Shown: positions 3 to 57,405 of the stretch, piece by piece
Position numbering within the stretch: the first letter of the stretch is position 1
How the letters are laid out: every line of letters starts with the position of its first letter
IMG/VR virus record: IMGVR_UViG_3300033066_002238
Location: 4,440-68,439 of that record
Reading direction: 5' to 3' (one strand)
DNA: 64,000 bases
DNA from: a virus
Taxonomy: Duplodnaviria; Caudoviricetes
The notes under the pieces: generated by a model
Database searches by the model: none
What the model was told of the DNA's origin: nothing
Seen by the model: only the letters and a program-made list of their open reading frames with translations
Translations under genes and position numbers: made by a program

Positions 3-308
3 AAGAAGCTGGCGGATGAACTCGACGCGACCTTGGGACAGGTGCAGTCGGATGACAGGAGCGTTGACCCTGATGCGCTCGCACTCGTCAAGGAAGCCGA
101 GGAGTTTCTCGCCAAGTACGCACGAGCCTTCCAGCGGGAGCGCGAGAATCCGGGCGTGCTGCGCCCGGAGCTGTGGAAATTCGTGAACCTGCTGCGCAAC
201 ATCCTGCGCATGGACAGCGTTACGCCTGTGAACGAGCCCACCCCGGATACCTTCGCCGATCGCCCCGATGATGATGACGACATCGACGACAGCGAGCTGC
301 CCTGCTGA
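3..308 (+). CDS. Hypothetical protein, 5' partial
   Basis: Frame open from window start (KKLADELDATLGQVQ...), acidic C-terminus, TGATG overlap with next gene. Confidence 0.6.
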   Translation, partial: KKLADELDATLGQVQSDDRSVDPDALALVKEAEEFLAKYARAFQRERENPGVLRPELWKFVNLLRNILRMDSVTPVNEPTPDTFADRPDDDDDIDDSELPC

Positions 309-1210
309 TGGGGCGCAAGACAAGCATCCCGTGGTGCCACCACACCTTCAACGGGTGGTGGGGCTGCCACAAGGTGAGCCCTGGGTGCAAGCACTGCTAC
401 GCGGAGGTGTGGAGCCGGCGCACCGGCCATGGTGGGGCCGCGAGCCTGCCGATCTGGGGCCAGGCGGCGCCGCGGCGCTTCTTTGGCGACAAGCACTGGC
501 AGGAGCCGCTCAAGTGGAACGAGGACGCGCTGCGGGCGGGCGGGCCGCGCCCGCGGGTGTTCGTGAACTCGATGAGCGACACCTTCGAAGATCGGCGCGA
601 CCTGGACGCGCAGCGCGAGCGGCTCTTCGCGCTCATGGACGCCTGCCCCGGCCTCATCTTCATGCTCCTCACCAAGCGCACAGACAAGGTGGCAGACCTC
701 GCGCCCACCACCTGGATGAAGCACTGGCCGCAGCACGTGTGGCTCGGCACCACCACCGAGGATCAGGAGACCATGGGCTGGCGCGCGCCGCTCCTCCTCG
801 GGCTCAAGCGCCAGGCTGAGATCCCGGTCGTGTACCTGTCCGCCGAGCCACTCCTGGAGCGCGTGGACCTTGGCCCGGCCCTCCCTCTCGATGGCCCAGC
901 GGTCGATCTCGTGATCGTGGGTGGCGAGAGCGGGCCGCGCAAGATGGAGGTGCCGTGGGCGGGACAGATGATCTTTCAGTCGGTAGTGCGCCGCGTCCCC
1001 GTCTTCTTCAAGCAGACGGGGAGCGTTCTTGCGCGCGAGCTCGGCCTGAAGGATCTGAAGGGCGAGGACATCGAGGAAGAGGGCGTCCCGCACCACCTGC
1101 GGGTGCGCCAGCTCCCCGCGTGCGCGGCACAGGCGCATGCTCCTGTGCCGCTCCCCGCCGCCCCCAAGAGCCGCCGCGTCTTTCTCCCCACGCTCCCTGG
1201 TCTCCTCTAG
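308..1210 (+). CDS. DUF5131 / phage Gp37-Gp68 family three-Cys radical-SAM-like protein
   Basis: N-terminal TSIPWCHHTFNGWWGCHKVSPGCKHCYAE (Cx6Cx2C), VFVNSMSDTF, LLTKR, WLGTT, LSAEPLL, VIVGGESG, FFKQTG motifs. Confidence 0.9.
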   Translation: MGRKTSIPWCHHTFNGWWGCHKVSPGCKHCYAEVWSRRTGHGGAASLPIWGQAAPRRFFGDKHWQEPLKWNEDALRAGGPRPRVFVNSMSDTFEDRRDLDAQRERLFALMDACPGLIFMLLTKRTDKVADLAPTTWMKHWPQHVWLGTTTEDQETMGWRAPLLLGLKRQAEIPVVYLSAEPLLERVDLGPALPLDGPAVDLVIVGGESGPRKMEVPWAGQMIFQSVVRRVPVFFKQTGSVLARELGLKDLKGEDIEEEGVPHHLRVRQLPACAAQAHAPVPLPAAPKSRRVFLPTLPGLL

Positions 1211-1235
1211 CTGCGACGGCAGCTCAAATGAAGCC

Positions 1236-1271
1236 TTTACACATTCGTTCATTGCTTGCTATATAGCGAGC
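1236..1271 (+). promoter_or_regulatory. Sigma70-like promoter with palindromic operator; leaderless start
   Basis: TTTACA-N18-TATATA; near-palindrome GCTTGCTATATAGCGAGC (1254-1271) directly before ATG 1272. Confidence 0.6.
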
Positions 1272-1775
1272 ATGCCCGGCCCCACCACACAGCCTGCGGA
1301 TGAAGAGAAGCAGGTGGCCCGCCGCTTCGATGTGCACGTGCGTGCGCTGCGCGCCGAGGCGCAGGAGCCGGTGTCGGCCGAGCGGGCGCGGTGGCTCGCG
1401 GATCGCGCCTTCGCTGCCGCCGAGCAGCTCCTGCTGGTCCTGCCCTCCCTGGAGCGCGGGGCGGTCGGGGGCCAGGCCGCTGCGCAGGTGCTGGCGGTGC
1501 TGCAGCACCTGTCCGCCGAGGAGGCAGAGGCGCGGGTGGAGCGCCGCGCGCACATCCTGCACGCCCACGGCTACGCGCAGGAGGCGCTGCACAAGGCGCT
1601 CTCGGCGCGGCGCTGGGCGCACACCGAGCAGGTGCAGGGGCGGCGCTTTGCGATCTGGGACGTGCAGGACACGCTCATCCGCTGCGCCTTCTCCGTGCGG
1701 GAGCTCGCGCACGTGGTGTCGATCCTGCCCCTGTGCCAGCTGGTCTTAACCACTTTCGAGGAGCAGCCCCGATGA
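1272..1775 (+). CDS. Hypothetical protein
   Basis: GC3-rich ORF after promoter; ATGA-coupled to next gene. Confidence 0.7.
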   Translation: MPGPTTQPADEEKQVARRFDVHVRALRAEAQEPVSAERARWLADRAFAAAEQLLLVLPSLERGAVGGQAAAQVLAVLQHLSAEEAEARVERRAHILHAHGYAQEALHKALSARRWAHTEQVQGRRFAIWDVQDTLIRCAFSVRELAHVVSILPLCQLVLTTFEEQPR

Positions 1776-2293
1776 TCCTGCATGCCCCGGATGACGTGCC
1801 ACAGGCCTTCCGCCTCTACCTCGCTCGCGCGCTGTGCGACAAGACGCGCCCCTTGCACGGCTTTGGCACAACGCAGATCTCGGGCGCGGCCTCGCTCGCG
1901 ACGCTGCTCGGGTGCCGTGTGGCCCACGTGCTGCGCAGCTTCAACTATTACCACTGCCCCTTCTCGATGCATCGCGCCCTGGAGCACTTCAACCGCCCCG
2001 CGCGCCAACTCGGCGCCCACACCTGGCCCATGCTGGGCCTGGCGCGGCTGTCGATCCAGGGGCCATGGCTCGACATCGAGGGCGGGGACCTGGAGCATCG
2101 GCACTGGGTAGCGCTCGCCTTTGTCGATGGTATCGATATGGTCTACGACATCAACAAGGAGGAGGGGGGAGGCTGGGACACACGGGCGGAGTGGGAGACA
2201 ACCACGATGCGGCGGCTCCTCGGAGAGGACGCCGACCACGAAGGCGCCACGGGCTGGCGCTTCTTCAAGACGCTGGAGATCATTGATCCATGA
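1772..2293 (+). CDS. Papain/C39-like fold protein, catalytic Cys replaced by Ser (paralogue of next gene)
   Basis: QISGAASLA versus ASCGPAALA in the neighbour; shared WPxLGL..GPW, HWVxLAFVDG..VYD(I/V)N, GGWxTR..WE, GATGW. Confidence 0.65.
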   Translation: MILHAPDDVPQAFRLYLARALCDKTRPLHGFGTTQISGAASLATLLGCRVAHVLRSFNYYHCPFSMHRALEHFNRPARQLGAHTWPMLGLARLSIQGPWLDIEGGDLEHRHWVALAFVDGIDMVYDINKEEGGGWDTRAEWETTTMRRLLGEDADHEGATGWRFFKTLEIIDP

Positions 2294-2862
2294 GGGATTT
2301 ATACACACCGACCGATGTCAACGAAGCCGCTGCGCGCTTCAACGCCAGCTGCGGCCCCGCCGCGCTCGCCGCGGTGCAACAAAAGACCGTGTGCGACATC
2401 ATGAGAGCCTTCCCGGGGTGGCGCGGCTACTGCAACCCGAGCACGATGAAGCACGCGATCGGCCTTGTCGCCGGGCGTGACTCCTTCGACGAGAAGCCGG
2501 GGACCTTCTGGCCGCTCCTCGGCCTTGGCTTTGTGCAGTTCTGCGGCCCCTGGGAGCAGGTGAGCGTGGCCGCGTCCTACCGGCGCACGCACTGGGTGGG
2601 CCTGGCCTTCGTGGATGGCCAGTTCTACGTCTATGACGTGAACGCGGTGACGGTGGACAAGAGCGCAGCCGAGAAGATGATCGGCCAGCCGTTCACGCTC
2701 GCGAACGTCGAGAAGGTGATGGCCGCGACGCTCATCCAGGGTGGCTGGGCGACGCGCGATCAGTGGGAGAAAGACACGCTGCCGCAGCTCCTGCGCACCA
2801 CCAAGGGCGCCACCGGGTGGTACATGCGCCAGGTGCTGCAGGTGAAGAGGATCGCACCATGA
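2290..2862 (+). CDS. Papain/C39-like cysteine peptidase-fold protein
   Basis: SCGPAALAA (Cys), THWV (His), VYDVN (Asp/Asn) in papain-like order. Confidence 0.65.
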   Translation: MRDLYTPTDVNEAAARFNASCGPAALAAVQQKTVCDIMRAFPGWRGYCNPSTMKHAIGLVAGRDSFDEKPGTFWPLLGLGFVQFCGPWEQVSVAASYRRTHWVGLAFVDGQFYVYDVNAVTVDKSAAEKMIGQPFTLANVEKVMAATLIQGGWATRDQWEKDTLPQLLRTTKGATGWYMRQVLQVKRIAP

Positions 2863-4637
2863 GTCACCGCCCGCCGATCCTGCGGCTGCTGGCCGAGGAG
2901 CTGATCGTCGACAACTTCGCCGGGGGTGGCGGTGCGTCCACCGGGATCCGCTTCGCGACCGGGCGCGATCCTGACATCGCCATCAACCACGATGAGGAAG
3001 CCCTGGCGATGTACCGGGCCAACCACCCCGGCACGCAGACGCTGTGCGAGGACGTGTTTGATGCGGTGCCGCGCGAGATGACGGGCGGGCGCAAGGTGGG
3101 CCTTGGCTGGTTCTCCCCCGACTGCACCTTCTTCTCCAACGCCCGGGGCGGCAAGCCCTGGCGCGACAAGAACCGCGCCCGGCGCCGCCGGGGTCTCGCC
3201 GGGGTGGTCTTGAAGTGGGCGGCGCAGGTGAAGCCGCGGGTGATCTTCGTCGAGAACGTGCCCGAGTTCAAGAAGTGGGGGCCGCTCATCAAGAACGAGA
3301 AGGGCGAGTGGATGCCCGACCCGGCGCGCGCGGGCCAGTCGTTTCGGCGCTGGTGCTCTCGCCTCAAGAACCTCGGCTACGTGGTGGAGCTGCGCGAGCT
3401 CAAGGCCTGCGACTATGGCGCGCCCACGTCGAGAAAGAGGGTGTTCATCATCGCGAGGTGCGATGGCCTGCCGATCGTGTGGCCAAAGCCGACGCACGGG
3501 CCAGGGCGGGCGCAGCAGTGGCGCACCGCGGCCGAGTGCATCGACTGGCGCCTGCCGTGCCCGTCGATCTTCGGCAGGAAGAAGCCGCTCGCGGCAGCGA
3601 CCCTGCGGCGCATCGCCAGGGGCATTCAGCGCTACGTGCTGGAGGCGGAGCGGCCCTTCATCGTGCCCCTGACACACCAGGGCAGCGATGAGCGGGTCTA
3701 CTCGGTGGATGAGCCGCTGCGCACGGTGACCGGCGCGCAGCGCGGAGAACAGGCGCTGGTGGCCCCCGTGCTGGCGCGCATCGGGCAGACGGGGGGGAAC
3801 GGATCCTACTCGAACGATGTGGGGGATCCGCTGACGACCGTCACCACCAAGGCAGAGCACCTGCTCGTGGCGCCGCTGCTGTCCCCGGTGAAGACGTGGG
3901 GCGGGGGCGGCAACGAGGCATCCCCCGCTGATCAGCCGCTGCGCACGGTGACGACATCGAAACGCGGGGAGCACGCGCTCATCATCCCGACTCTCATCCA
4001 GACCGGCTATGGGGAGCGCGACGGCCAGGCGCCGCGGGTGCCAGGGCTCGACAAGCCCCTTGGCACGGTGGTGGCCGATGGCCAGAAGCACGCGCTGGTG
4101 ACGGCCTTCCTGGCGCAGCACTTCGGTGGTGGCAAGAACGGCGTGCAGACCCCGGGCCTGCAGATGACGCTGCCGCTTGGAACGGTGACCGCGACCGATC
4201 ACCACGCGCTGGTGACAAGCAGCCTGGTGAAGCTCAAGGGCACGTGCAAGGACGGGCAATCTGTCACCGAGCCGCTTGGCACCGTGCAGGCGCAAGGGCG
4301 GCATTATGCCGAGGTGAGGGCCTTCTTGATGGCCTACTACACCGCGGACCAGGACGCGCAGCTCGGCCTGCCCCTGCCCACCGCGACCACCAAGCACCGC
4401 TTCGCGATCGTGACGGTCGAGGGGGTCGATTACGCGATCGTTGACATCGGCATGAGGATGCTGGAGCCGCGGGAGCTCTACAACGCACAGGGCTTCCCGC
4501 GCGAGTACGTGATCGACCCGATCCACAAGGGCAAGCGCTTCACCAAGACCGCGCAGGTGGCGAAGTGCGGCAACAGCGTGCCGCCCCCGGTCGCGGCGGC
4601 GCTGGCCAGGGCGCAGTTCGCTGAGGACGCGGCCTGA
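2859..4637 (+). CDS. DNA cytosine-C5 methyltransferase with repeated PLxTV-type TRD units
   Basis: VDNFAGGGGAS (motif I), SPDC (IV), ENVPEF (VI), RKR (VIII), C-terminal MRMLEPRELYNAQGFP and GNSVPPP. Confidence 0.93.
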   Translation: MSHRPPILRLLAEELIVDNFAGGGGASTGIRFATGRDPDIAINHDEEALAMYRANHPGTQTLCEDVFDAVPREMTGGRKVGLGWFSPDCTFFSNARGGKPWRDKNRARRRRGLAGVVLKWAAQVKPRVIFVENVPEFKKWGPLIKNEKGEWMPDPARAGQSFRRWCSRLKNLGYVVELRELKACDYGAPTSRKRVFIIARCDGLPIVWPKPTHGPGRAQQWRTAAECIDWRLPCPSIFGRKKPLAAATLRRIARGIQRYVLEAERPFIVPLTHQGSDERVYSVDEPLRTVTGAQRGEQALVAPVLARIGQTGGNGSYSNDVGDPLTTVTTKAEHLLVAPLLSPVKTWGGGGNEASPADQPLRTVTTSKRGEHALIIPTLIQTGYGERDGQAPRVPGLDKPLGTVVADGQKHALVTAFLAQHFGGGKNGVQTPGLQMTLPLGTVTATDHHALVTSSLVKLKGTCKDGQSVTEPLGTVQAQGRHYAEVRAFLMAYYTADQDAQLGLPLPTATTKHRFAIVTVEGVDYAIVDIGMRMLEPRELYNAQGFPREYVIDPIHKGKRFTKTAQVAKCGNSVPPPVAAALARAQFAEDAA

Positions 4638-4906
4638 TGCGCTCCTGCATCGAGTTGGCCCGGCTCCTGGCCGCCCGCAAGGGCATCGCCTGGGAGATGG
4701 AGCTCACCCAGGCCGAGAAGCTGCTGCTGGCGCGCCGGGTGCTGCGGCAGCAGGCCCAGATCGCGGACCTGCAGCGCAAGCTCAAGGTGGCGCTGCACCG
4801 GTGGGAGGATGCCGAGGACAACGCGGCCCAGCAGGGGCAGGCATACGAGCGGCGCATCGAGGTGCTGAGCGCGCAGCTGGCGGTGGCGGAGAAGGGCGAT
4901 GGATAG
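4637..4906 (+). CDS. Hypothetical coiled-coil protein
   Basis: TGATG-coupled ORF with heptad-like sequence. Confidence 0.65.
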   Translation: MRSCIELARLLAARKGIAWEMELTQAEKLLLARRVLRQQAQIADLQRKLKVALHRWEDAEDNAAQQGQAYERRIEVLSAQLAVAEKGDG

Positions 4907-5393
4907 CCTGCTTGGCGCCGGCGCCGCCACCGCGCCCCAGAACAACCGCCCCGACCGCGCGGACCTGGCCGACCCGCTGAGCCGCGGGGACGCCCGCGCC
5001 GCCGCGCCGCGCCGCACCGATGCGCGGCCCCTGCCCAAGGTGGAGTGGCCGAGCTGGGCCAGCGCCTGGCTCGCCGCGCCCGATGCCGCCTGCTACCTGC
5101 CCGCTGCGGAGGAGCCCACCCCGGCCGCGCAGGGTGCCCGGGGGCGCTTCCCGCTCGGGGGCTTGGTCCGGGCCACGGTGCGCCTGGCGGTGCCGCGGGC
5201 GGGGACGCTCGGCGTCGTGGTGGGCCACACCGCTTTGGGCGAGGTGTGCGTGCGCCAGGCGCCCGGGAGCCTGCTGGCGATGCCGGTGCCCGCTGCGCAG
5301 CTGATGCTGGAGCAGACCCCGGCGCCGCCCCCTCCCGAGGCTGTGAACCCGGTGCCGAACGAGGACGAGTACGACGATGAGGAGCTGCTATGA
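4899..5393 (+). CDS. Hypothetical protein
   Basis: Overlap-coupled ORF, acidic tail. Confidence 0.6.
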
Positions 5394-5836
5394 AGCGACG
5401 TGAGGCGGCGACCGACCGCCAGCAAGAGGTGCTGGACTTCATCAACAGCTACGCCACGGCGCACGGCTACCCGCCGACGCTGCGCGAGATCGGCAAGGGC
5501 CTCGGCATCCAGTCGACCAACGGGGTGACCGATCACCTGAAGGCGCTGGAGAAGAAGGGCTACGTGCAGCGCACGAAGCTGCACTCGCGCGGCATCGTCC
5601 TTGTGCAGGAGCAGCCCGTCAGGGCGTGCGGCGCGCCCGGCGCACCGCCACCGCCCGGGGCCGCGGTGGAAGAGGCGGTGCAGGAGACAGCGCGCCTGCG
5701 CCAGCAGCTCATGGCCGAGCTCGCGCGCCTGGAGGGCCTTGGCTCCGAGATCGTCGAGAAGATAGAGCTGCACGAGAAGGGCCACGGAGCAAAGGCGCGT
5801 ACCTCGCTCACGTTCCTGCGCCGGGTGCTGGCATGA
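5390..5836 (+). CDS. LexA-type winged-helix DNA-binding domain protein lacking the S24 peptidase domain
   Basis: [48 protein letters not shown], then coiled-coil tail. Confidence 0.85.
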
Positions 5837-6126
5837 GCGCCGGGGCCTTCAGCATCGGCGGGCGCACGTGGCCGGGCCTCTCGAAGCTCATCGAGGAGGC
5901 GGGCGAGGTGCTGCAGGTGGCGGGGAAGCTCATCGCCACCGGGGGCCTCGCGCAGCACTGGGACGGCTCGAACCTGCGGGAGAGGCTGCAGGAGGAGCTT
6001 GGCGATCTCACCGCCGCGGTGCGCTTCTTCGCGCGCGTGAACAACCTGGACGAAGACGTGATCGCCAGGCGGGCGCGGGAGAAGGAGAAGACCTTCTGGC
6101 AGTGGCACACGGAGCAGGGGCGATGA
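5833..6126 (+). CDS. MazG-like NTP pyrophosphohydrolase
   Basis: [13 protein letters not shown] and LQEELGDL acidic motifs. Confidence 0.8.
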
Positions 6127-6878
6127 CGCGCCCCCTCTCGACGACCCCCCCCCGCGCCATCCCCTTCACCTTCCGCGGCGCGCCCTGGGTGGCGGAGCTG
6201 CGCGGGAAGCGCAAGGTGGTGCTGCTGCAGGCGGGCCGCGAGCTCGTCACCGGCTCCTGGGTGAACGGCCTGCTCACGCAGGTGGCGCCGGCCCCGGGCT
6301 CGGAAGGCGCGGTGCGCGGCATCAGCGTGGAGGCCTCGGCCGCGCTGCGCAAGCTCGCGGCGGGCGACGGCCAGCAGGAGCTGCTCGCGACATCGGAGGC
6401 CATGGTGCGCCAGGAGGTGAGCGACGCGATCGGGGCGCTGCCCGACGTGCTGCTCCTGTCCAACCCCATCGGCACGGCGCAGTTCCCCACCGAGCGGGGC
6501 AAGTACCGCTACGTGGACTATGGCCTGGAGGTCGGGAGCCCCGATCTCGTGGCGATGATGGGATACCGTCAGCCGCTGGTGGCCGCGCTGCCGCGCTCCA
6601 GCAGGATCGTCTTCGAGGGTGGGATCTGGTGGCTGCGGGGGGCGCAGTGGCTGGGCCTGGAGCTCAAGGCCCCGGGCAAGGCGCCCAAGGAGCACCAGGA
6701 GGACTGCCACCGGCGCTGGGAGGCGCACGGCGCATGGATCTGGCCCGCGATCACAAGCGGGGCGCAGGCCATGGCGGCGATCGAGGAGGCGCGGGCGCTC
6801 TTGCGAGCGACAGGGGCAGAGCCTTGCGAGGTCGATCGGGCGCTCCTTGCGGGCATCCGGGCCGACGGTGGCACATGA
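6123..6878 (+). CDS. VRR-NUC / PD-(D/E)XK nuclease domain protein
   Basis: GSPDL...LELKAPG..PKEHQ motif pattern. Confidence 0.75.
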   Translation: MTRPLSTTPPRAIPFTFRGAPWVAELRGKRKVVLLQAGRELVTGSWVNGLLTQVAPAPGSEGAVRGISVEASAALRKLAAGDGQQELLATSEAMVRQEVSDAIGALPDVLLLSNPIGTAQFPTERGKYRYVDYGLEVGSPDLVAMMGYRQPLVAALPRSSRIVFEGGIWWLRGAQWLGLELKAPGKAPKEHQEDCHRRWEAHGAWIWPAITSGAQAMAAIEEARALLRATGAEPCEVDRALLAGIRADGGT

Positions 6879-6890
6879 TACGATCTCATC

Positions 6891-7214
6891 ATGGCAGAAG
6901 GCTCGCCGCCGTCCTCCAAGAGCCCGGTGCGGCTCATCGTGATGTCACGCGCGCTCGCCGGGGTGACACAGTTCTCGGGGCTGGAGCACCACGATGGCGG
7001 ATGGCAGGGAGTGCTATCAATCTCCGTCGCTGGTGTGGTGCTGGGCCTGAAGGTGCAGATCGAGGAGAGGCGCGATGAGAGAAAAGCCGCAGACGCAAAA
7101 GCGCGAGGATGGATCTACATCGTCGCTGGCTCCCCCGAGGAAGCCGCTCGCAAGATCGAGCTCGCCCACCACGAGATCGACCGCTACCTCGCCGCCCACA
7201 TCAGGACCCACTGA
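6891..7214 (+). CDS. Hypothetical protein
   Basis: GC3-biased ORF between nuclease and Dam. Confidence 0.55.
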   Translation: MAEGSPPSSKSPVRLIVMSRALAGVTQFSGLEHHDGGWQGVLSISVAGVVLGLKVQIEERRDERKAADAKARGWIYIVAGSPEEAARKIELAHHEIDRYLAAHIRTH

Positions 7215-8010
7215 GGAGGCAGGCCCCTTCCTCAAGTGGGCGGGCGGGAAGCGGCGCCTCGTGCCGGTGCTGCTATCGCACCTGCCGCGCGCGTGGAAGG
7301 CCTACCATGAGCCGTGCCTGGGAGGCGGGGCGCTCTTCTTCGCGCTGCATGGCCGCTACGAGGTGGCCTACCTGTCCGACGTGAACAGCGACCTTCTGAG
7401 CGCCTACCTCGCCGTGCGCGACCGCCCCGAGCATCTCCTGCAGGAGCTCGCGGGGATCCCAGTGACGCCGGAGGCCTTCGAGAAGATGCGGCGCGTGGAC
7501 GCGGACAGGCTGAATCACCTGGCGCGCGCGGCGCGCACGCTCTACCTCGGGCGGTGCTGCTTCAACGGCCTGTGGCGCACGAACGCCGCGGGGCGCTTCA
7601 ACGCGCCGTGGGGCAAGTACAAGGCGCCGCTCGCGCCGGTGCCGCGCCTGGTTCGCGCCGCGTCCCCGGCCCTCCAGCGCACCATCTTGCGGGCGCAAGA
7701 CTTCGAGGCCTCGCTGCGCCTCGCTGGGCCGGGGGATCTGGCCTACCTCGATCCGCCCTACGACGGCACCTTCGCCGCCTACACCAAGGGCAAGTTCACG
7801 CAAGAGGATCAGCGCCGGCTCGCCACCGCCGCCCGCGCCGCCGCCGCGCGCGGGGTGCTGGTGATGGTCTCAAACTCCGCCACCCCCCTCATCCGCACGC
7901 TCTACGCGGGCTGGCGCTTCGTGCGCGTCACAGCCCCCCGGTCAATCAGCTGCAAGAGCAGCACCCGCACGCAGGAGGAGCCCGAGCTGCTCCTGCTCTC
8001 CTGGAGGTAA
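7075..8010 (+). CDS. dam: Dam-family DNA adenine methyltransferase (start uncertain)
   Basis: PFLKWAGGK, EPCLGGGALFF, SDVN, CFNGLWRTNAAGRFNAPWG, YLDPPY. Confidence 0.88.
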   Translation: MREKPQTQKREDGSTSSLAPPRKPLARSSSPTTRSTATSPPTSGPTEEAGPFLKWAGGKRRLVPVLLSHLPRAWKAYHEPCLGGGALFFALHGRYEVAYLSDVNSDLLSAYLAVRDRPEHLLQELAGIPVTPEAFEKMRRVDADRLNHLARAARTLYLGRCCFNGLWRTNAAGRFNAPWGKYKAPLAPVPRLVRAASPALQRTILRAQDFEASLRLAGPGDLAYLDPPYDGTFAAYTKGKFTQEDQRRLATAARAAAARGVLVMVSNSATPLIRTLYAGWRFVRVTAPRSISCKSSTRTQEEPELLLLSWR

Positions 8011-8230: not shown

Positions 8231-9196
8231 CTAGAGCGCCAGCTTGGCGCGCAGCTCCGCCTGCTCGCGCTTGCTCAGGCCCAGCGCCTCCAGGTCGGGC
8301 TGCTCACCGCGGATCATGCTGCGCACCGCGGCCAGCTCCTGGCGCGAGAGCTCCGCCGCGTGCAGGCGGTAGTCGCAGAAGGCCTCCCAGGCGGCGGGGA
8401 CCCAGTCGGCCACCAGGCCGCCGATGGCCTCGGCATAGACGCGGATCTCGCGCTGGGCGTGGCTGTGCAGCCGCAGCGCCAGAAAATGCAGCAGGTTGTG
8501 CAGGTCGATCTTCCAGTACCACTGCGTGTAGTAGTTCAGCGTCAGGTTGATGCGCGCCAGCTCGCGCGCCAGCCCGTCGCGCTGCGGGTCGATGATCTGC
8601 CCGCCCTCGTCTTCGTTCAGCAGCTCCTGGTAGTGCGCGTAGCAGCGCTGCGCGTCATCGCGCAGCAGTTCCAGCACCGCCTGCGCCTGCTCCGGCGCCA
8701 GCGCCTGCGCCTCCCGCCCCTGCCGGTTGCTCTGCGACTGCGCCGCCAGGTCCTCCGCCCGCGGCAAATAAAACTCCCGATCCAGCACCGAATATCTCCC
8801 TGAATACTCATTCACGCTCGCCGTCCGGTGCCTGATCCACTGGCGGGCGATGAAGATGGGGAGCTTGACGTGGAGCTTTAGCTCGCACATCTCCAGGGGG
8901 GTGGTGTGGCGGTGGCGCATCAGGTAGCGGATCAGGCCGCGGTCATCGCGCAGCTTGGTGGTGCCGCGGCCGTAGGACACGCGCGCCGCCTGCACGATGG
9001 CGCCGTCATCGCCCATGTAGTCGACCACGCGCACGAAGCCGTGATCAAGCACCGGGGTGGCCTCAAAGAGGCGCGCCTCCAGCGCGGGCACGGTGGGGCG
9101 CCGCGTCGGCTGCTGCGCGGCGCGCGCCTCGTCGATGGCCTGCTGCTCTTCGGGGCGGAGGGGGTTGCCCGGGAGGGTGGTTCCAGAGTCCGACAT
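8231..9196 (-). CDS. thyX: Flavin-dependent thymidylate synthase ThyX
   Basis: [25 protein letters not shown], ThyX motif [33 protein letters not shown]. Confidence 0.97.
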
Positions 9197-9355
9197 CTCG
9201 GTCGTTGTAGCACAGCCGCGCGCCAACCACCAACTCCACCGCGGCGGCCCTACAGCGCGCCCGCGCCGCGAGGGTGCGCCACCGCCACAGACCCCGCCGC
9301 GAGGGCCCCACCGTGACCGCGCTTTCGCGCTAAAATGATCAAAGGCAGGTCATCC

Positions 9356-9760
9356 ATGCTCAGTCCGGGACAGATCGTCGGCAACTACCGCATCACCCGC
9401 CCGCTCGGCCAGGGCGGCATGGGCGCGGTGTACGCGGCAGAGCACCAGGTCATCGGGCGCCGCGCCGCGATCAAGGTCCTGCACCAGTCGCTCTCGTCGG
9501 ACCCGGCGCTGGCCAGCCGCTTCCTGAACGAGGCCCGCGCCGTCAACCTGGTGGAGCACCCGGGCCTGGTGGAGGTCTACGAGTACGGCGTGCTGCCCGA
9601 GGGCGGCGCCTACATCGTCATGGAGTACCTGGAGGGCGAGACGCTGCACGCCGCCCGCCGCCGCCACGGCCGCCTGACCCAGGAGGCGGCCGCGATCGGG
9701 CTGCAGATCGCCGAGGCGCTGGCCGCCGCCCACGCCCGCGACATCATCCACCGCGACCTA
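9356..9760 (+). pseudogene. Truncated PknB-like Ser/Thr kinase (ends at HRDL; ORF runs on in junk to 9997)
   Basis: LGQGGMGAVY, AAIKVL, RFLNEARA, YIVMEYLEG, IIHRDL then no KPEN, DFG or APE. Confidence 0.85.
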
Positions 9761-10376
9761 TGGCCCGCTGCGCCAGCTCCTGGACGGCAGCTTCAAGAAC
9801 CGGGGCAGCGCCCGCAACGCCCTGCAGATCGTCTGCGGGCGCACGCTCCTGCCCTTCCATGGCGGGACCAGGCCCGCGCGAGAGCGAGGCGGGATCTATA
9901 TCCACATCGGCAATGGCGGCAATGGGAAGACGGCATTCCTCAGCGCCCTGTGCCAAGCCGTGCAGGGCCTGAAGCTGCCGCCCGAAGCCCTGAATGACAT
10001 CGTGGCGCCAGCGGCAGGCCCGCGCACCCTGCGGGGCAAGCAGCAGGCCTGGGTGGCGAGCGCGAAGCCGCGCATGATCTTCGTGGACTGCGCCGACGAG
10101 ATCAAACTCAGCGACGCGGAGACAAAGGCGCTCGCCACCGGCTACAACGTCCACCTCGCGGTGAATCGCATGCCGCAGAAGATGCCCACAGCCATCGCGC
10201 AGTTCGTCCCCGGCCAGGAGCCGGACCTGCGGCGCATCCAGATCATCGAGTGGCCCCGCTTCGTGCCGGCGGAGAACCGGAACAAGGAACTCAGCGAGCG
10301 CCTGGCCGATGACCCGGACCTCTTCCGCTGGCTCGCCGAGGGGCTGTGCAAGGACGTGGAGATGTGGGGCGCATGA
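9759..10376 (+). pseudogene. D5/P4-primase-type SF3 ATPase fragment lacking its own start codon
   Basis: Frame open from 9678 with no ATG/GTG before 9960; encodes LRQLLDGSF..ALQIVCG, Walker A IGNGGNGKT, RRIQIIEW..RNKELSERL. Confidence 0.65.
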
Positions 10377-20860: not shown

Positions 20861-21961
20861 ATGTCCACGCTGCCGATCGTCAACGACTTCCCCACTGCCG
20901 CGCCGGGCTCTCTCGGGGCGGTGCAACTAAATGGCCCAAGGGCGCTGCTGGAGCTGTACAGCGAGAGCGACCGCCTCAGCGCACAGCTGCTCGTCTACGG
21001 CATCTCCTCGAAGTGGCTCCCCGTGGGCGACCTGCTCACCGTGGACGGCACGGGCGGAGACACGGTGCAGGCGCGCCTCAAGCGCAGCACGCGCCGCATC
21101 TTCGACGTGGAGCAGACCGCCTACTACCTGCTGTGGCGCACCACCGCGGCGGGCAGCGCGTCGGCGCAGGTGGCGGACCTGGGCACCGGCGGCGGCGGGG
21201 GCCTCCTCATCCAGCCGATCGCCGCGGGCAACATCACGCTGCTCGCGGGCCAGCTCGTCGGCTTCAGCGTCTCGGGCGACACGGTAAACGGCGTGGGCGC
21301 GCCGATCACCGTGGAACTCGGCGCGGCCGACGTGCGCAACGCATGGACGGTGCTCATCACCATCGCCGCGGTGACGACGGACAGCGGCGCCGAGACCCAC
21401 CACGCGGGCGCCGCGGGGCTTTTCAGCGTCGTGTCCGATGGCCTCGGCGTCGTGGCGCTGCAGCTCGCGACCCCGGTCGGGGACGATGAGGTGAACACCC
21501 TGGCGGGCGATGGCAAGGCGGTGCCATCGGTCTCCATCGTGAACAACAAGGTGGTGCTCACCTTCACCCTCGGTGGCGACCTGGGGATCCGGTCCTACCT
21601 GAGCCTGGGGGGCAACTTCGACACGGTGCTGCAGGCCTCGCCCGCGGGCCCCGGGGGCAACGCCATCACCATCGCCACCGTGGCCGACTCGGGCACCAAG
21701 GCGGGCTCGCTCACCAAGAGCGGCAACGCGATCACCCTGCACTACAAGGACGGCGTGAGCACCGTGGCCGACATGGAGGCGCTCTTCGCGACGCCGGTCT
21801 CTGTCACCTACGGCACCGTCTCGGTGAAGACCGCAGGCACGGGATCGACCATCCTCGCGGCGCCGGGCGACACCCACAGCGCTACGGCCATGGCCTTCGG
21901 GGACGCGCCCAAGCCGACGAGCTTCAACGTGTCGGGGATCGTGACTGCGGCCAGGCCCTAG
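20861..21961 (+). CDS. Putative virion decoration protein, paralogue of 41820-42674
   Basis: Shared N-terminal domain (LLVYG..SKW.P..LTVDGT..D..RR.FDVEQ.A.YLLW); Gly/Thr/Ala beta-rich C-terminus. Confidence 0.7.
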   Translation: MSTLPIVNDFPTAAPGSLGAVQLNGPRALLELYSESDRLSAQLLVYGISSKWLPVGDLLTVDGTGGDTVQARLKRSTRRIFDVEQTAYYLLWRTTAAGSASAQVADLGTGGGGGLLIQPIAAGNITLLAGQLVGFSVSGDTVNGVGAPITVELGAADVRNAWTVLITIAAVTTDSGAETHHAGAAGLFSVVSDGLGVVALQLATPVGDDEVNTLAGDGKAVPSVSIVNNKVVLTFTLGGDLGIRSYLSLGGNFDTVLQASPAGPGGNAITIATVADSGTKAGSLTKSGNAITLHYKDGVSTVADMEALFATPVSVTYGTVSVKTAGTGSTILAAPGDTHSATAMAFGDAPKPTSFNVSGIVTAARP

Positions 21962-22482
21962 CCAGCGAAGGGGAGGCGGACGAAGCCCGCGAAGTCGCGC
22001 GGAGGGCGATCGGCCCAGCTGAGGGTGTCGCCGTGGTTGCCGTCCATGGTCTGGATGCTGGTGGCGCTCGTGGGGAGCGCGATCACGCACACGTGGCCGC
22101 GGTCGGTCTGGGGGTTGTAGATGACCGCCACGTCGCCGGGCAGGGCCTTGCTGAGCGGCACCATCGCGCCGAACTTCTCGGCGAAGCGCAGCCACCCGCT
22201 CGCGCCACCCAGGCCATGCCACTCGTCGAGAGGGCAGGGCGTGATGTCGAGCTGGTCATAGGCCTCGCGCGCGAGGTACTCGCAGGCCAGGGCGCACCAC
22301 ATGGCCCCCTTGAGATAGCGGTTGCCGTAGCGGCCCTTGTATCCCTGCAGGTACTTGTCGATCAGCGGTCCCTTGTTCGCGCCCGACGGCTCCTCGTGCA
22401 CGCCGAGGTCGCGCTGGTACAGCTCCAGCAGGCGTCGGGCGACGGGGGTCGGAGCGAGGTCGAAGGCGGGGGTCTTGCTCAT
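21958..22482 (-). CDS. CHAP-family amidase (endolysin)
   Basis: LGVHE..GAN.GP.IDKY, WCA (Cys), GHV (His), DGN. Confidence 0.8.
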   Translation of the reverse strand: MSKTPAFDLAPTPVARRLLELYQRDLGVHEEPSGANKGPLIDKYLQGYKGRYGNRYLKGAMWCALACEYLAREAYDQLDITPCPLDEWHGLGGASGWLRFAEKFGAMVPLSKALPGDVAVIYNPQTDRGHVCVIALPTSATSIQTMDGNHGDTLSWADRPPRDFAGFVRLPFAG

Positions 22483-23111
22483 GGGGTGGTGCCTCTCTCG
22501 GGCGCGGTGATGGTGAGATGGTGCCAGCCCTCGAAGAGCTCTGCGGGCCGCGCCTGGCCAGCAGGCACCACGACGACGATGCTGCCGCCGACGTTCATAC
22601 GCGTGAGCACCACGTTCTGCAGCCATCCAAAGCGCGGCGCTGCGTGGAGCTCGTCAATCGCTTCCCGCCCGAAGGGATCGACGAACGCGAGGTCGATGCC
22701 TCGGCCCGTGAGCGGCGCGCCCGGAGGCGCTGCGTGCAGGCGCCCGCGCTCCTGGGTGGTGTACGCAGATGGGAAGGCGGACGGGATCAGGGCCGGGCCG
22801 CACAGGGACGCGATGCGCCGCAGCCCGCGCAGCGTCTCTTCCTGGCTGCGCGCGCCATAGAGGATGTCGCCCTCGGGGTTGCGCAGCACGCGGTGGCAGG
22901 CGGCAGCGAGGAAGAGCGAGGTGATGGCACACTCGACAGGGGGGCGCTCGATGAGGATCCGGTGCTGCGCGGCGCCTCGCGTGATCTCGTCGAGGAAGGC
23001 GCACAGGTTCTCCTGGTGGGGCTGCACGGTGACGCCGGGCACTAGGAGCGGGATGAACTCGCGCAGGGGGTTCAGACAGGCGGAGCGGGTGAGCCACAGT
23101 GCGAGCTTCAT
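22479..23111 (-). CDS. Degenerate terminase large subunit ATPase-domain paralogue
   Basis: Collinear with TerL N-domain: REFIP, RILIERPP(VECAIT), GAPLTGRG, FVDP, GWLQNVVLTRMNVGGSIVV; no nuclease domain. Confidence 0.75.
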   Translation of the reverse strand: MKLALWLTRSACLNPLREFIPLLVPGVTVQPHQENLCAFLDEITRGAAQHRILIERPPVECAITSLFLAAACHRVLRNPEGDILYGARSQEETLRGLRRIASLCGPALIPSAFPSAYTTQERGRLHAAPPGAPLTGRGIDLAFVDPFGREAIDELHAAPRFGWLQNVVLTRMNVGGSIVVVVPAGQARPAELFEGWHHLTITAPERGTTP

Positions 23112-23320
23112 GGGGTTCCCTCGAAGGTCTTGCGGGTCAGGGCCTCTTCCGTGCGGGCGGCAGCGTCCAGGGCGCTCTCGGGGCCGAGCAGCTGCTTCAG
23201 GCGATCGACGAGCGGCGCGGTGTCCGGGGCGGCGAGGGCCTCGATCGCGGCGATGACCGCGGGCAGGGCCTTGGCGCCGGCCTCGATGATCGCGTCCAGG
23301 GGGCTCATGGAATCAGCCAC
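23108..23320 (-). CDS. Small lysis-cassette protein
   Basis: Coupled helical ORF. Confidence 0.6.
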   Translation of the reverse strand: MADSMSPLDAIIEAGAKALPAVIAAIEALAAPDTAPLVDRLKQLLGPESALDAAARTEEALTRKTFEGTP

Positions 23321-24227
23321 GGGGCGCCTCCTCCCCGGACACCCACCCAGGGCCGCCCGGGAGCTGGCACAGCGCCATCAGGCCGCACAGGCTGGAGACG
23401 GCGTAGCCGATCTCGCGCCGCAGCTGCGGGCGCTGGCACTGCTCGATCTGGCGCGCCTCCCCGGGCCAGGCGCCCTCCGCCGGGGTGGGCTCGTCGTCAT
23501 CCCACCAGCTCCGCCAGGTGACGCCCTCCTCGTAGGCGAAGAGCAGTCGGCCATCGGGCCGGAAGCACGCCGACAGGCCAGCGGTGATCGGCGGCTGGGC
23601 CGCGGCGGGGGGCGCTGCGACGGGCGGCGCGGTGATCGGTGGCGCTGGCGCGGGCAGCGGCGCAGGAGCAGGCGGTGCTGGCGCGGCTGGAGGCGCGGGA
23701 GCAGGCGGCGGCGCGCACGCGGGCGCGATCGGCGGCTGCTGGCCCGCGGTGAGCGCCTCCGCGGCCAGGCACAGACCCTCCGCGGTGCTCCTCAGCCATG
23801 GGCTGGGGGCGACGCCGAGCGCGGGCAGCGCCCGCAGGATGTCCGACACCAGGCTCACCGATCCGGCGGTGGCCAGGAGCGCCTGGCGCTCGCGATCGGG
23901 GGCCTTGGCGGCATCGACCACCGCGCCCGCGTCCAGGATCGCTGCGCGGCCGAGGTTCACAGCGGCCCGCAGCTTCTCCCAGGGCTCCATGCGCTTCTGC
24001 CACTCGGCCAGCGCCTTGTCGCTGCCGCCGGGGCCGCTTCGCGCGAGCTGGAGCAGCTGTGGGTCTTCACGGGCCGCGCGGGCCGCGCGCGAGTACAGCG
24101 GCGCGGTGGTCTTGTCGACCATGTTGATCACCGCGGCGCTGGTGATGATGACGCGCCGGGTGGCCGTAGCGCAGCCCCCCAGCAAGATCAGGCACAGGAG
24201 AAGGAGCGATCGTCTGGTGTGTCCCAT
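23313..24227 (-). CDS. Lipoprotein in lysis cassette (spanin candidate)
   Basis: Lipobox LLGGC after hydrophobic signal; Pro/Ala linker. Confidence 0.65.
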   Translation of the reverse strand: MGHTRRSLLLLCLILLGGCATATRRVIITSAAVINMVDKTTAPLYSRAARAAREDPQLLQLARSGPGGSDKALAEWQKRMEPWEKLRAAVNLGRAAILDAGAVVDAAKAPDRERQALLATAGSVSLVSDILRALPALGVAPSPWLRSTAEGLCLAAEALTAGQQPPIAPACAPPPAPAPPAAPAPPAPAPLPAPAPPITAPPVAAPPAAAQPPITAGLSACFRPDGRLLFAYEEGVTWRSWWDDDEPTPAEGAWPGEARQIEQCQRPQLRREIGYAVSSLCGLMALCQLPGGPGWVSGEEAPRG

Positions 24228-24290
24228 GCGTCGATCGTAGCAGATCGGCCTGCTTGATCACGCGATCCAAAGCAAGCTATAAAGCTTGCC
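24228..24290. promoter_or_regulatory. Back-to-back promoters with palindromic operators
   Basis: Minus TGC-TACGAT-N6-ATG; plus TTGATC-N18-TATAAA-N7-ATG; GCAAGCT-ATAA-AGCTTGC; TTGATCACGCGATC. Confidence 0.65.
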
Positions 24291-25055
24291 ATGACACACA
24301 CCGCAGACGACAGGTCCCCTCTCGACGAACTCACCGGTGCCGACGACTGGCGCACGGTCCACATCGAGCCCACCGCGGCCCGCACGGTGACGGAGGCCAT
24401 GGTGCTCCTCGCCCGCCGCGCCGCCGAGAAGGCGCTGGAGCCACAGGCGCCCACCCCGCCCCCCGAGGGCGTGAACGGCCACCAAGTGCTGCAGCCGCAG
24501 GGCGTGCCGTGGGCGCACATCTCGCGCCTGCTCGGCATGATGATCCCGTGGCTGCAGAAGTCGAGCGGCACGGGCCCGCGGCCCAAGCCCTTCTCGCGCG
24601 AGGCCGATCTCTTCTTCCCCCACGTCACCGCAGGCGCCATCCGCTGGGCCTATGACGAGCTCGCGCGCGTGGTCGATGAGCCGGCGCAGCTCGCGCTCGC
24701 AGGCGCCCTGCATCAGGTGCCTATCGCGTCGAGGGAGAAGAGCCAGGGCATCATGGCGGTGTGGATGCACCTCATCGCCACCGCCAAGGCTCACGCGGCG
24801 GCGCTGCCGCAGGTGCAGGTGGTGGACGGCCCAAGCGGCAGGCAGCTGGCGGTGCAGGTGGGCAACATCATGCAACCGGTCTCCCAGGCGCAGGCGGCGG
24901 CCTGGCAGCAGGAGCGGATGCAGGTGGTGAGCTTGCGGGAGATGCTGATCTACGAGGCGACGGTGCTCTCGTACCGGCTTACCGGCCTTGACTGGCGGCA
25001 GAAGCCTGCGGAGCCGGCGCAGGCCCAGACGGCGCAGGAGAAGCCTTCGGCCTGA
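24291..25055 (+). CDS. Hypothetical protein inserted antisense in lysis cassette
   Basis: Own promoter, strong GC3 bias. Confidence 0.75.
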   Translation: MTHTADDRSPLDELTGADDWRTVHIEPTAARTVTEAMVLLARRAAEKALEPQAPTPPPEGVNGHQVLQPQGVPWAHISRLLGMMIPWLQKSSGTGPRPKPFSREADLFFPHVTAGAIRWAYDELARVVDEPAQLALAGALHQVPIASREKSQGIMAVWMHLIATAKAHAAALPQVQVVDGPSGRQLAVQVGNIMQPVSQAQAAAWQQERMQVVSLREMLIYEATVLSYRLTGLDWRQKPAEPAQAQTAQEKPSA

Positions 25056-46754: not shown

Positions 46755-48245
46755 CTAGAGGTCCGCCTCACTCAACCCGATCCGCAGGGCCAGTGCAAGC
46801 TGATCGGCCTTCGCCTGCCGCCGCTCGCTCTCGGTGAGCCCGCGCAGCCCCCGCACCTTCTGTTCCGGGGTCCAGGCATCCACACCGCCCCCGAGCGCGT
46901 CGAGGAGGAGGGCGAGCTTGCGCACGTAGGGCGGCCAGCGCGGCTCGGGCCAGAAGCGCAGCGCGCACAGGCCTTCGGCGATAGCGTGATCGGGGCCGCG
47001 CAGCGCCAGGCACGACAGCTCCGCCGTGGGCCGCACGCGCCGCTGCCACAGCGCCAGCACCCGATCGACGCGCCCGAAGCCATCGGGGGCGGTGATCGGC
47101 ACGAGGCCCTCGCGGCGGCTGCGCAGCCAGCTCGCGAGGAGGCGCCCGAAGCAGTAGGTGATCGCCGCGGCCGGGCCGTAGCCCTCCAGGTGATCGGTGC
47201 CCTCGTAGGCGCCCGCGTCCTCGTAGCCGTCCCCGATGAGGAGCTGGCGGCGGTCGGCGGAGAGCGCCGCGGGATCAGCGCCGCCGCCCCCGCCAAAGCC
47301 CCACAGCGTGAGGGCCGCATCGGGCCAGGCCCTGGCGAGCGCGTGCCACTCGGAGAGCGCCACCCTGGCGCCTTCCACGGACAGAGCACCAAGGTCAAAG
47401 CGCAGGCGCGGGTAGTTCGCCGCGGCCCACGCCGCGGCCTCCTCGATGCGCTGCCAGCCCCCCGGCGGCTGCAGGCGCAGCTCGTCCTGCAGCTGAGGGA
47501 TCTGGCGGCGCCAGTCCTGCATGGCGCGGTGGTAGGCCTCGTAGAGCGGCGGCGGGAAGCGCCAGGAGGTGCCCGCGAGCTCCTGCAGGGCCGCCGTGGT
47601 CTGGGCGCCGGCTCGCTGCTCGGGGAAATACTCCTCCAGCACCGGGGGCTTGCCCCAGCCGCCGGGCTGCGGCCGCTCGGGCGGCTCCGCGGGGCCGGGG
47701 CCGTGCGCCTCCGCCTCCCCCGGGGTGAGCGCGCGCACCGAGGAGCGGCAGCGCACGTGCAGCGGCGGCCAGTTGCGCTGCCAGAAGGGATCGTCGAAGC
47801 GCCGCACGATGCCGGCGCGGTGCCAGCAGATCTGGGAGGTGCGATAGTCGAGCAGCGGATCGAAGCGCAGGAAGGGGCGCTCCTCCAGGCGATCGGGCAG
47901 GAGCAGCTCGACGAAGCGGCCCGCGTTGTAGGCGAGCTGCAGGTTTGACTCCATGAGCGCGAGCAGCGCCGGGGCCTGCGCGTCCCCCCAGCCCTTGGCC
48001 AGGGCCTCCATGGTGGAGAGCTCGAACTCGTCGAAGCTCTGATCGGCGGCGAGGGCCTGATCGGCCTTCTCCCACACGACGCGCAGCACGTTCAGGTTCG
48101 CGGCGCTGGCCACGGTGAACGCGCGGCGGCGCGCCTGATCATCGAGCGCATCCCACTTGCCGCGCGGCAGCACCGGCCGCTCCCGCATCCACGCCATGAT
48201 GGCCCGGCGCTCGGGGCCGCGCAGGTCACGCCCCGCCATCCCCAT
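46755..48245 (-). CDS. MuF (Mu gpF) minor head protein with degenerate zincin-like C-terminal domain
   Basis: RAFTVA, YNAGR, D.RTS.IC, WPPLH..CRS; C-terminal ITYCFGR and LSCLA...AIAEG. Confidence 0.85.
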   Translation of the reverse strand: MGMAGRDLRGPERRAIMAWMRERPVLPRGKWDALDDQARRRAFTVASAANLNVLRVVWEKADQALAADQSFDEFELSTMEALAKGWGDAQAPALLALMESNLQLAYNAGRFVELLLPDRLEERPFLRFDPLLDYRTSQICWHRAGIVRRFDDPFWQRNWPPLHVRCRSSVRALTPGEAEAHGPGPAEPPERPQPGGWGKPPVLEEYFPEQRAGAQTTAALQELAGTSWRFPPPLYEAYHRAMQDWRRQIPQLQDELRLQPPGGWQRIEEAAAWAAANYPRLRFDLGALSVEGARVALSEWHALARAWPDAALTLWGFGGGGGADPAALSADRRQLLIGDGYEDAGAYEGTDHLEGYGPAAAITYCFGRLLASWLRSRREGLVPITAPDGFGRVDRVLALWQRRVRPTAELSCLALRGPDHAIAEGLCALRFWPEPRWPPYVRKLALLLDALGGGVDAWTPEQKVRGLRGLTESERRQAKADQLALALRIGLSEADL

Positions 48246-56534: not shown

Positions 56535-56783
56535 ATGACCCACCGCACCGCCAAGAAGATCCTCGCCCAGCACCACGGCAACCTGCGCACCGCCAAGCGC
56601 GATCGCCTCGCCCGTGCGAGCGCGATCGCCCTGCGCAAGAGCGCCTGCAGCCAGGGCGCCTGTCGGCCTGCGGTGACAAGCTGCCCTAGCGGCCCGACCT
56701 CCCCTCTCGCTGCGGCCCCCTGGCGGGGCCTTTTTTATTGCTATACTTGTAGGCATGCCCAAGCGCCGCTCTCCTCGCCCTGA
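56535..56783 (+). CDS. Small basic protein, possibly frameshifted (alternative stop at 56689)
   Basis: AAGGAG RBS; ORF runs through terminator, while another frame ends ERLQPGRLSACGDKLP* just before it. Confidence 0.4.
   Translation: MTHRTAKKILAQHHGNLRTAKRDRLARASAIALRKSACSQGACRPAVTSCPSGPTSPLAAAPWRGLFYCYTCRHAQAPLSSP
56714..56736 (+). terminator. Rho-independent terminator
   Basis: GGCCCC-CTGGC-GGGGCC followed by TTTTTT. Confidence 0.8.
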
Positions 56784-57405
56784 TGAAGCCCCCTTCGTGC
56801 CCGAAGGCCTGCCGCGCGTCGCGTTCCCCGACCCCCTGAAGCGCCGCAGCAAGCACACCCCGAGCGGCCCAGAGCAGATGGAGCTGCGCTACCGGGAGAT
56901 CCAGGAGCGCCTGCTCGTGCGGGGCCAGCATCCCACCAAGGTCTGCGAGGAGATGTCGAAGCTCTACGACTGCACCCCGGGGTGCGTCGTGCAGTGGATC
57001 AAGGCCGCCCGCGAGCGCTGGCGCGCGCTCACCAGCAAGGACGAGCTGGTGGACCGCCAGGAGCAGCTGGAGGCCATGGCCCACAACCTCTACGAGATGG
57101 CGCTCGGCGACCGCGCCTGGCAGGGCATGGACGAGCTGCTTGACGAGCTGCAGGCCGCCGCCGCGGGGCGCGACAAGGCGCGCCTGGCCGCGGTGGTCGA
57201 GCAGCTCCTGGCGCTGCGCAACGCCCGGCGCCCAAACCTCAAAGTGGCGGCGACCCTCATCGCGAACCTCGGCAAGTTCTACGGGCTCGGGCAGACGCTC
57301 AAGCTGGACATCCCCGGCCTCACCCTGGCCGTGGCGCAGGCGATCCCGGCGCCTGCGGAGACCACCCCGGCCGCACCGCCCAAGGCCGATGGCGAAGGCC
57401 AGTAA
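56755..57405 (+). CDS. Terminase small subunit (putative)
   Basis: Helical HTH-like protein overlapping TerL start; TGC-TATACT-N7-ATG. Confidence 0.65.
   Translation: MPKRRSPRPDEAPFVPEGLPRVAFPDPLKRRSKHTPSGPEQMELRYREIQERLLVRGQHPTKVCEEMSKLYDCTPGCVVQWIKAARERWRALTSKDELVDRQEQLEAMAHNLYEMALGDRAWQGMDELLDELQAAAAGRDKARLAAVVEQLLALRNARRPNLKVAATLIANLGKFYGLGQTLKLDIPGLTLAVAQAIPAPAETTPAAPPKADGEGQ

Follow-up and report, generated by a model that had tools for sequence, protein, structure and literature searches.

A truncated homologue of the terminase ATPase core, predicted to be catalytically dead, is inserted at a translational-coupling junction of a phage operon

A 210-amino-acid (aa) open reading frame (ORF) was analyzed in a virus of the Caudoviricetes, the IMG/VR record IMGVR_UViG_3300033066_002238. 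The window, that is, the whole 64,000-nt stretch that was analyzed, corresponds to bases 4440–68439 of this 68,439-bp linear record, which has an estimated completeness of 89%, and its GC content is 69%. The ORF is an insertion into an operon encoding a lipoprotein, a small protein and a CHAP-like protein, and alignments and structural models indicate that it derives from the ATPase core of the large terminase (TerL) and has lost the catalytic motifs of that enzyme. On a slender balance of probability, we consider that the ORF is kept as a folded, binding-only pseudo-ATPase.

22479–23111, minus strand: 210-aa ORF, a truncated and apparently catalytically dead homologue of the TerL ATPase core (BLASTP, phmmer, alignments and models).

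Two places only in the 68-kb record are TerL-like, namely this ORF and the working terL, which lies about 34 kb away from it; the ORF stands in an unrelated operon.

57389–59134, plus strand: working TerL (phrog_38, E = 7e-73; Terminase_6C; TIGR01630).

The longest ORF of terL begins at 57140, and the ATG at 57389 is the likely start. The motifs of the window TerL are intact (Walker A PPRHAKS, DDP and TRWHEQD), as is its nuclease domain, and the protein carries an HTH-like N-terminal extension of about 70 aa.

BLASTP aligned the 210-aa ORF to the TerL of the same phage with 31% identity over 139 aa (E = 3e-10), and the alignments are collinear from the N-terminal helices through the last strand of the ATPase core. 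These results confirmed the collinearity with the N-terminal ATPase domain claimed in an earlier sequence-only reading of this DNA, all of whose quoted TerL motifs were located within 57140–59134. A phmmer search of 1.84 billion representative proteins returned 55 TerL matches at E < 1e-3, all about 30% identical over the first ~200 residues. The targets are mostly 430–630 aa long, eleven being shorter (191–309 aa), and those that were scanned bear Terminase_6N and/or Terminase_6C, with the exceptions of P0007 and P0036, which gave no Pfam hit. The ORF itself produced no Pfam Terminase_6N match even at E = 1 and no Terminase_6C match, and its phrog_38 match reached just E = 0.73. The short targets were evaluated as possible dead paralogues and rejected, since most of them keep the Walker A Lys and their contexts resemble split or fragmentary terL genes instead; P0036 and P0043 do not align at Walker A, and both keep Walker B. 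Short matches to the TerL N-terminal domain also occur at L018:979-3491 and L017:4001-5212 as separate genes with an intact Walker A and further genes after them, a split-terL-like arrangement.

The fold of the ORF product was further assessed by modelling. An AlphaFold2 (AF2) model built with a TerL alignment supplied had a predicted local distance difference test (pLDDT) score of 88. Its best PDB matches were the PhiV-1 TerL chain in the Avs3 complex (8dgc_E, Foldseek E = 6e-6) and the T4 gp17 ATPase, and TerLs were matched in BFVD at E = 1e-9. Moreover, the ESM Atlas holds its own alignment-free model of the ORF, with a predicted template modelling (pTM) score of 0.79 and a TM score of 0.83 to TerL clusters. 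TerL ATPases were the top structural matches throughout, which upheld the earlier claim of homology. Taken together, sequence and models indicate that the ORF is derived from the TerL ATPase core and is predicted to share its ASCE/Rossmann-like fold.

The residues that were lost and kept in the ORF show an uneven pattern. The Walker A motif PPRHGKT has become PPVECAIT, in which V59, E60 and A62 stand in place of the consensus R, H and K. The loss of the Walker A Lys reported from the sequence alone was thus verified at A62, and so was the lack of a nuclease domain, given the alignments, the length of 210 aa and the missing Terminase_6C match. In Walker B, DDP has become D-P: D145 is kept, and the second Asp, invariant in 56/56 TerLs, is missing or replaced by P146. 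The motif III or coupling motif, TRWHxDD, falls in an alignment gap, and the ORF terminates at the PER motif, short of both lid subdomain and nuclease domain. In-frame gaps account for the loss of both the second Asp and motif III, and over about 190 aligned residues there is no stop or frameshift relative to the TerL frame. The structural columns kept in the ORF include the PP before the P-loop, LTGxG, the Walker B Asp and TR..GGS. Among conserved columns, 9 of 10 catalytic ones were lost versus 8 of 28 others (Fisher p = 0.002, or p = 0.02 with the motif III deletion counted as one event; the two column classes were picked after the alignment had been viewed). In addition, the GC content at the three codon positions (0.72/0.52/0.87) is consistent with the frame and follows the pattern of real genes in this genome. 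The motif losses predict a catalytically dead product, which would be unable to hydrolyse ATP, translocate DNA or cut DNA. Because the P-loop residues, catalytic Asp, motif III, lid and nuclease are gone, any action of the product would be by binding.

How the ORF arrived was evident from a comparison with four relatives from four different samples (L014, L015, L016 and L020). The genes and repeats concerned are as follows; dN/dS denotes the ratio of nonsynonymous to synonymous divergence.

23313–24227, minus strand: first gene of the operon, a 304-aa lipoprotein with the lipobox LLGGC (N-terminal domain 81% identical to that of the L014 homologue).
23108–23320, minus strand: gene of a 70-aa helical protein, conserved in the relatives at 55–80% identity (dN/dS 0.19 versus L014).
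21958–22482, minus strand: last gene of the operon, a 174-aa CHAP/TIGR02594-like putative peptidoglycan hydrolase (subthreshold profile matches).
23108–23116, minus strand: left copy of the 9-nt direct repeat ACCCCATGA, in which the 70-aa gene stops and the start codon of the ORF lies.
22479–22487, minus strand: right copy of ACCCCATGA, containing the final two codons of the ORF, its stop codon and the codon at which the CHAP-like gene starts.

Over nine genes, at 60–85% aa identity, L014 shares synteny with window positions 29712–20861. The gene order in all four relatives is lipoprotein, a gene of about 75 aa, and CHAP-like gene, and in all four the small gene overlaps the CHAP-like gene directly by ATGA; no trace of ORF-like sequence was found at that junction in any of them. 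By pairwise identity the two relatives furthest removed are L015 and L020, which do not carry the ORF either, and therefore a single gain in the window lineage is most parsimonious. In the window, as the sequence-only reading had described, one ATGA overlap (23108–23111) joins the end of the 70-aa gene to the ORF start, and another (22479–22482) joins the end of the ORF to the beginning of the CHAP-like gene. The repeat ACCCCATGA is present once at the junction of L014, the closest relative, and twice in the window, where the two copies lie 629 nt apart and define a 629-bp insert. The L014 junction reads GAAGGAGGCACCCCATGAGCAAG, and the window reads TTCGAGGGAACCCCATGA at the left end of the ORF and GAGAGAGGCACCACCCCATGAGCAAG at its right end. 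The ORF is an insertion into the operon and not an original component of it. Its start codon, its last two codons and stop, its Shine–Dalgarno-like context (candidate GAGGGA, 5 nt ahead of the ATG) and both ATGA couplings are products of the duplicated ancestral junction. A general junction motif of this genome was ruled out as the origin of the repeat by the count of ACCCCATGA (4 matches versus 2.8 expected), and a consensus scan of 21500–24600 found no promoter or terminator of the ORF's own. The 70-aa gene was also considered as a remnant of the small terminase (TerS) or of TerL and rejected, as it has no similarity to the ORF upstream of terL, nor to TerL.

These observations bear on several proposals made from the sequence alone. 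The three operon genes are under purifying selection in the relatives (dN/dS 0.19–0.24), and since the relatives run the same operon without the ORF, the ORF is a lineage-specific, dispensable accessory gene and not lysis machinery; its assignment to a lysis cassette is therefore disfavoured. Its description as expressed and not decayed held in that the frame is intact and placed for translation, but the ATGA coupling offered in support comes from the duplicated junction and is not independent evidence. Likewise, a CHAP-like gene does lie downstream, but the name CHAP amidase goes beyond its profile matches, all of which fall below curated cut-offs (Pfam CHAP, E = 0.019; PHROG endolysin, E = 0.0017; TIGR02594, E = 2.6e-5). 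The homologues of this gene are 62–74% identical, and a profile search of the PDB gave no confirmation of the CHAP-like assignment. It had also been suggested that the ORF links packaging to lysis timing. A timer built into the lysis cassette would fit the ATGA coupling of the ORF and its place after the small gene and ahead of the CHAP-like gene. However, the four relatives keep the operon (dN/dS ~0.2) with the flanking genes coupled directly and no ORF, and the coupling was inherited from the ancestral junction, so that we regard this role as very improbable.

The operon bears a second lineage-specific change. After a Pro/Ala-rich stretch, the lipoprotein continues into a lineage-specific C-terminal extension of about 90 aa (especially 23313–23720; coding GC 0.74/0.60/0.93 by codon position), which has no counterpart in the relatives; their proteins are 212–223 aa long and stop once the Pro/Ala stretch is over. 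The two independent assemblies JGI 3300020577 and Logan SRR32380193 both stop at window position 23616, within this lipoprotein stretch, and at 23703, in the lipoprotein gene, a GGC insertion is present in a wastewater variant.

Searches for orthologues of the ORF by word-indexed search, by phmmer against the 1.84 billion representatives, and in IMG/VR, GTDB genomes, JGI metagenomes and INPHARED phages found none. A single Methanoregula match covers 28 residues and was dismissed as spurious, and tblastn against 50,697 INPHARED phage records matched full-length TerLs only. Homologues riddled with stops and frameshifts, which would have spoken for neutral decay, were not seen, as no orthologues were found at all. 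The window DNA recurs with 100% identity in one JGI metagenome contig and one Logan assembly, parts of it were found in river and wastewater runs, and every copy of the ORF found is 100% identical. The fragments from the river run are identical to the window, with no polymorphism. In run X8, a 2019 wastewater metagenome (21732–24166), a variant diverges by 4–8% over the CHAP-like gene and by 1–4% over the lipoprotein and small genes; it has no contig over the ORF and a 13-nt unmatched loose end at the CHAP start, which speaks neither for nor against the insert. A 281-nt contig of a wastewater metatranscriptome (run X12) covers 22320–22600 without differences and bridges the junction of the ORF and the CHAP-like gene. 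This contig from an RNA library is a weak hint that the ORF is transcribed, DNA carry-over being possible.

We also considered where the inserted sequence came from. The ORF had been called a paralogue of the phage's own TerL. Homology held up, but paralogy is at most a possibility, since the branch is very long and its position in the tree has no support. The end branch of the ORF is about 2.0 substitutions per site versus a median of 0.62, and the free tree places it away from its own TerL with zero support; in the approximately unbiased (AU) test, a clade with its own TerL was not rejected (p = 0.67). The ORF and terL have no DNA-level similarity, which rules out a recent duplication of terL or gene conversion. 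Moreover, the synonymous divergence (dS) of the operon neighbours from L014 is just 0.5–0.9, and a new copy of this phage's terL would hardly have diverged to 31% identity within that time. It is more likely that the ORF arrived from another element, and we infer that it was probably already a divergent gene. The insert starts within a few codons of a TerL N-terminus, and its other end falls at the border of the ATPase core; as aligned, these boundaries would suit a pre-existing stand-alone gene better than a random fragment.

Whether the ORF is a maintained protein or a passenger was then weighed. As a tolerated passenger, it would be a foreign terL piece captured by microhomology-mediated recombination at the ACCCCATGA junction, functionless and drifting in amino-acid sequence, its frame open only through polarity or uncoupling effects on the CHAP-like gene or because the insertion is recent. 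The ORF is a singleton absent from the four relatives, its start and stop codons come with the duplicated junction, and its long branch and lost motifs are in keeping with drift. The proportion of conserved columns kept (~64%) and the GC at the second and third codon positions (GC2/GC3, 0.52/0.87) fit about 0.15–0.2 neutral substitutions per site, an amount that falls within the time allowed by the dS of 0.5–0.9 to L014. Furthermore, high GC makes long open frames cheap, and other frames here run for 147–275 aa. A second amputated enzyme ORF, a protein kinase N-lobe, is present in the genome. On the other hand, the losses are uneven and fall in three catalytic motifs, whereas most structural Gly/Pro/Trp columns are kept, and both ends of the insert match TerL domain boundaries. 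The flanking 9-nt repeats would favour the precise deletion of useless DNA from a size-limited phage genome, and the alignment-free language-model fold is confident (pTM 0.79). When neutral evolution was simulated down to 31% identity, about 0.6 changes per site were needed, 5% of the sequences were stop-free, and the predicted GC2/GC3 was 0.61/0.78 versus 0.52/0.87 observed. The open frame, the in-frame losses, their catalytic concentration, the GC pattern and the domain-shaped boundaries argue against plain decay. We consider a passenger possible, at well below even chances, and the retention of the ORF as a folded, binding-only pseudo-ATPase is the reading that we prefer.

Several points weigh against this preference. 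The duplication of the junction yielded the start codon, the stop codon and both couplings as by-products, and the frame could stay open solely because nonsense or frameshift mutations ahead of the CHAP-like gene are polar and selected against. The capture of gene fragments occurs in this genome, where a 220-aa ORF (9335–9997) matches a protein kinase N-lobe only (Pkinase profile positions 1–126 of 263), and the third-position GC of the 210-aa ORF, at 0.87, is slightly under that of the structural genes. The high-confidence AF2 model depends on the TerL alignment; modelled without it, the ORF gave a pLDDT of 37 and an unusable model. In addition, the ORF is a singleton, and all of its copies are identical.

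A gene-sized cassette was inserted precisely where the 70-aa gene and the CHAP-like gene are translationally coupled, a position in which it would be co-transcribed and co-translated late with the lipoprotein, small-protein and CHAP-like genes. If the ORF is kept as a binding-only pseudo-ATPase, its action might be pictured as follows. The product would be present alongside TerS, TerL and portal, and its likeliest targets would be partners of the TerL ATPase core, such as a TerS-type protein or the terminase/portal assembly. The targeted assembly may belong to a rival phage, to a satellite or to this phage, and the action would be one of sequestration or interference and not of catalysis. A dominant-negative or competitor-directed role is possible. 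More specifically, the ORF might be a conflict gene, a folded, ATP-blind mimic of the terminase ATPase that sequesters a rival TerS or terminase, or that occupies a sensor (for example, an Upx-like one) without triggering it. We give this version a rather small chance; if true, it would make the ORF the first functionally assigned 'pseudo-terminase'.

A decoy against terminase-sensing immunity was the first function proposed for the ORF; as such an immune decoy or inhibitor, the dead TerL mimic would bind and blunt terminase-sensing proteins of the Avs1–3 or Upx type. The top PDB fold match is indeed the TerL chain of an Avs3–terminase complex (8dgc_E), and like many conflict genes the ORF is an optional, fast-evolving accessory gene. 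The ATPase domain alone is recognised by EcAvs2 and Upx, of which Upx binds the unfolded ATPase core and does not require catalysis (PMC13601566). This behaviour of Upx might leave a small opening for a decoy role. However, SeAvs3 senses active-site residues of TerL and bound ATP, and EcAvs2 contacts the ATPase domain via TerL-bound ATP and a bridging ATP (PMC13601566); the ORF is without the P-loop Arg, His and Lys and the catalytic Asp, which belong to the ATP site that SeAvs3 and EcAvs2 read. Moreover, the small TerL-like proteins tested so far, Ksap2 and vs.8, activate Avs2 and do not block it (PMC11564622, PMC13601566), so that a mimic is likelier a liability. The ORF would also be expressed late, together with real TerL, and PADLOC found no match for the ORF or its neighbours. 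The loss of the ATP site, read against the work on Avs2 and Avs3 sensing, disfavours the decoy against Avs immunity, and we rate it as unlikely.

A Mu-like structural module lies on the minus strand and comprises portal (48226–49917), MuF, protease/scaffold, gpT-type major head protein, sheath and baseplate J. A candidate small terminase adjoins terL.

56755–57405, plus strand: 216-aa ORF directly upstream of and overlapping terL, candidate small terminase (position, HTH-like sequence).

Family searches with this ORF gave no match, and it is a candidate by its position and helix-turn-helix (HTH)-like sequence only. The plus-strand terL lies 7 kb from the minus-strand portal gene in the opposite orientation, with a plus-strand gene block (50014 onward) between them, a layout as expected if a block containing TerS and TerL had been inverted relative to the usual Mu-like order. 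The left arm (308–8010) encodes a DUF5131 protein and two DNA methylases, a C5 cytosine methyltransferase (2763–4637) and a D12-class N6-adenine methyltransferase (7075–8010). The kinase N-lobe ORF adjoins an intact thyX (Thy1, E = 5e-55, minus strand; region 8231–9997).

The case illustrates that ATGA coupling can be inherited and not evolved, and the relatives and the window form a natural with/without pair for testing the function of a pseudo-terminase. What is unusual here is that the catalytic motifs are gone with the scaffold residues kept, and that the arrival route is visible as a precise in-frame insertion at a coupling junction. Its present importance is limited by the fact that it is a singleton in an uncultured phage.

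Compared with solved TerL ATPases of the Terminase_6N or phrog_38 type (PhiV-1 TerL, 8DGC chain E; T7 gp19, 4BIJ; T4 gp17, 2O0J), the ORF is alike in its collinear sequence, shared fold and kept structural columns, but differs in being without the Walker A Arg, His and Lys, the catalytic Asp, motif III, the lid and the nuclease. By stops, frameshifts and codon-position signal, it is not a decaying remnant. T4 vs.8 is a stand-alone TerL-ATPase homologue of unknown function with intact Walker A and B (PMC13601566). Like the ORF, it is small, homologous to the ATPase domain of its own terminase and encoded apart from the terminase gene; the two differ in that vs.8 has retained both Walker motifs, shows conservation throughout T4-like phages and is an activator of EcAvs2, whereas both motifs are lost in the singleton ORF. 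Second, incomplete gp17-type terminase genes, again of unknown function, are represented by CBB_274 and the corresponding genes of RaK2-like phages, phiM12 and phiN3 (PMC5259590). These are likewise truncated TerL genes in phages that also have a full TerL, but they are immediate neighbours of terL and show conservation in the group of phages to which they belong, whereas the ORF was inserted into an operon associated with lysis. Among the fold matches of the ORF was a CBB terminase entry of 235 aa (BFVD, rank 44), and no sequence relation beyond the shared TerL fold was found. As for a relation to the vs.8 and CBB_274 families, the tblastn of the 50,697 phage records matched full TerLs only, no direct alignment being made. 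Ksap2 of phage Bas60 is, as the ORF is, a small accessory protein with a TerL-ATPase-like fold and a narrow phage distribution (PMC11564622). The ORF also resembles morons in that one phage has it and relatives, otherwise syntenic, lack it at the corresponding junction, but unlike morons it is threaded in by duplicated translational-coupling signals, and no promoter or terminator of its own was found. The ORF is best described as an independent addition to the known stand-alone truncated TerL-like genes, distinguished by its location, its singleton status and its visible insertion mechanism.

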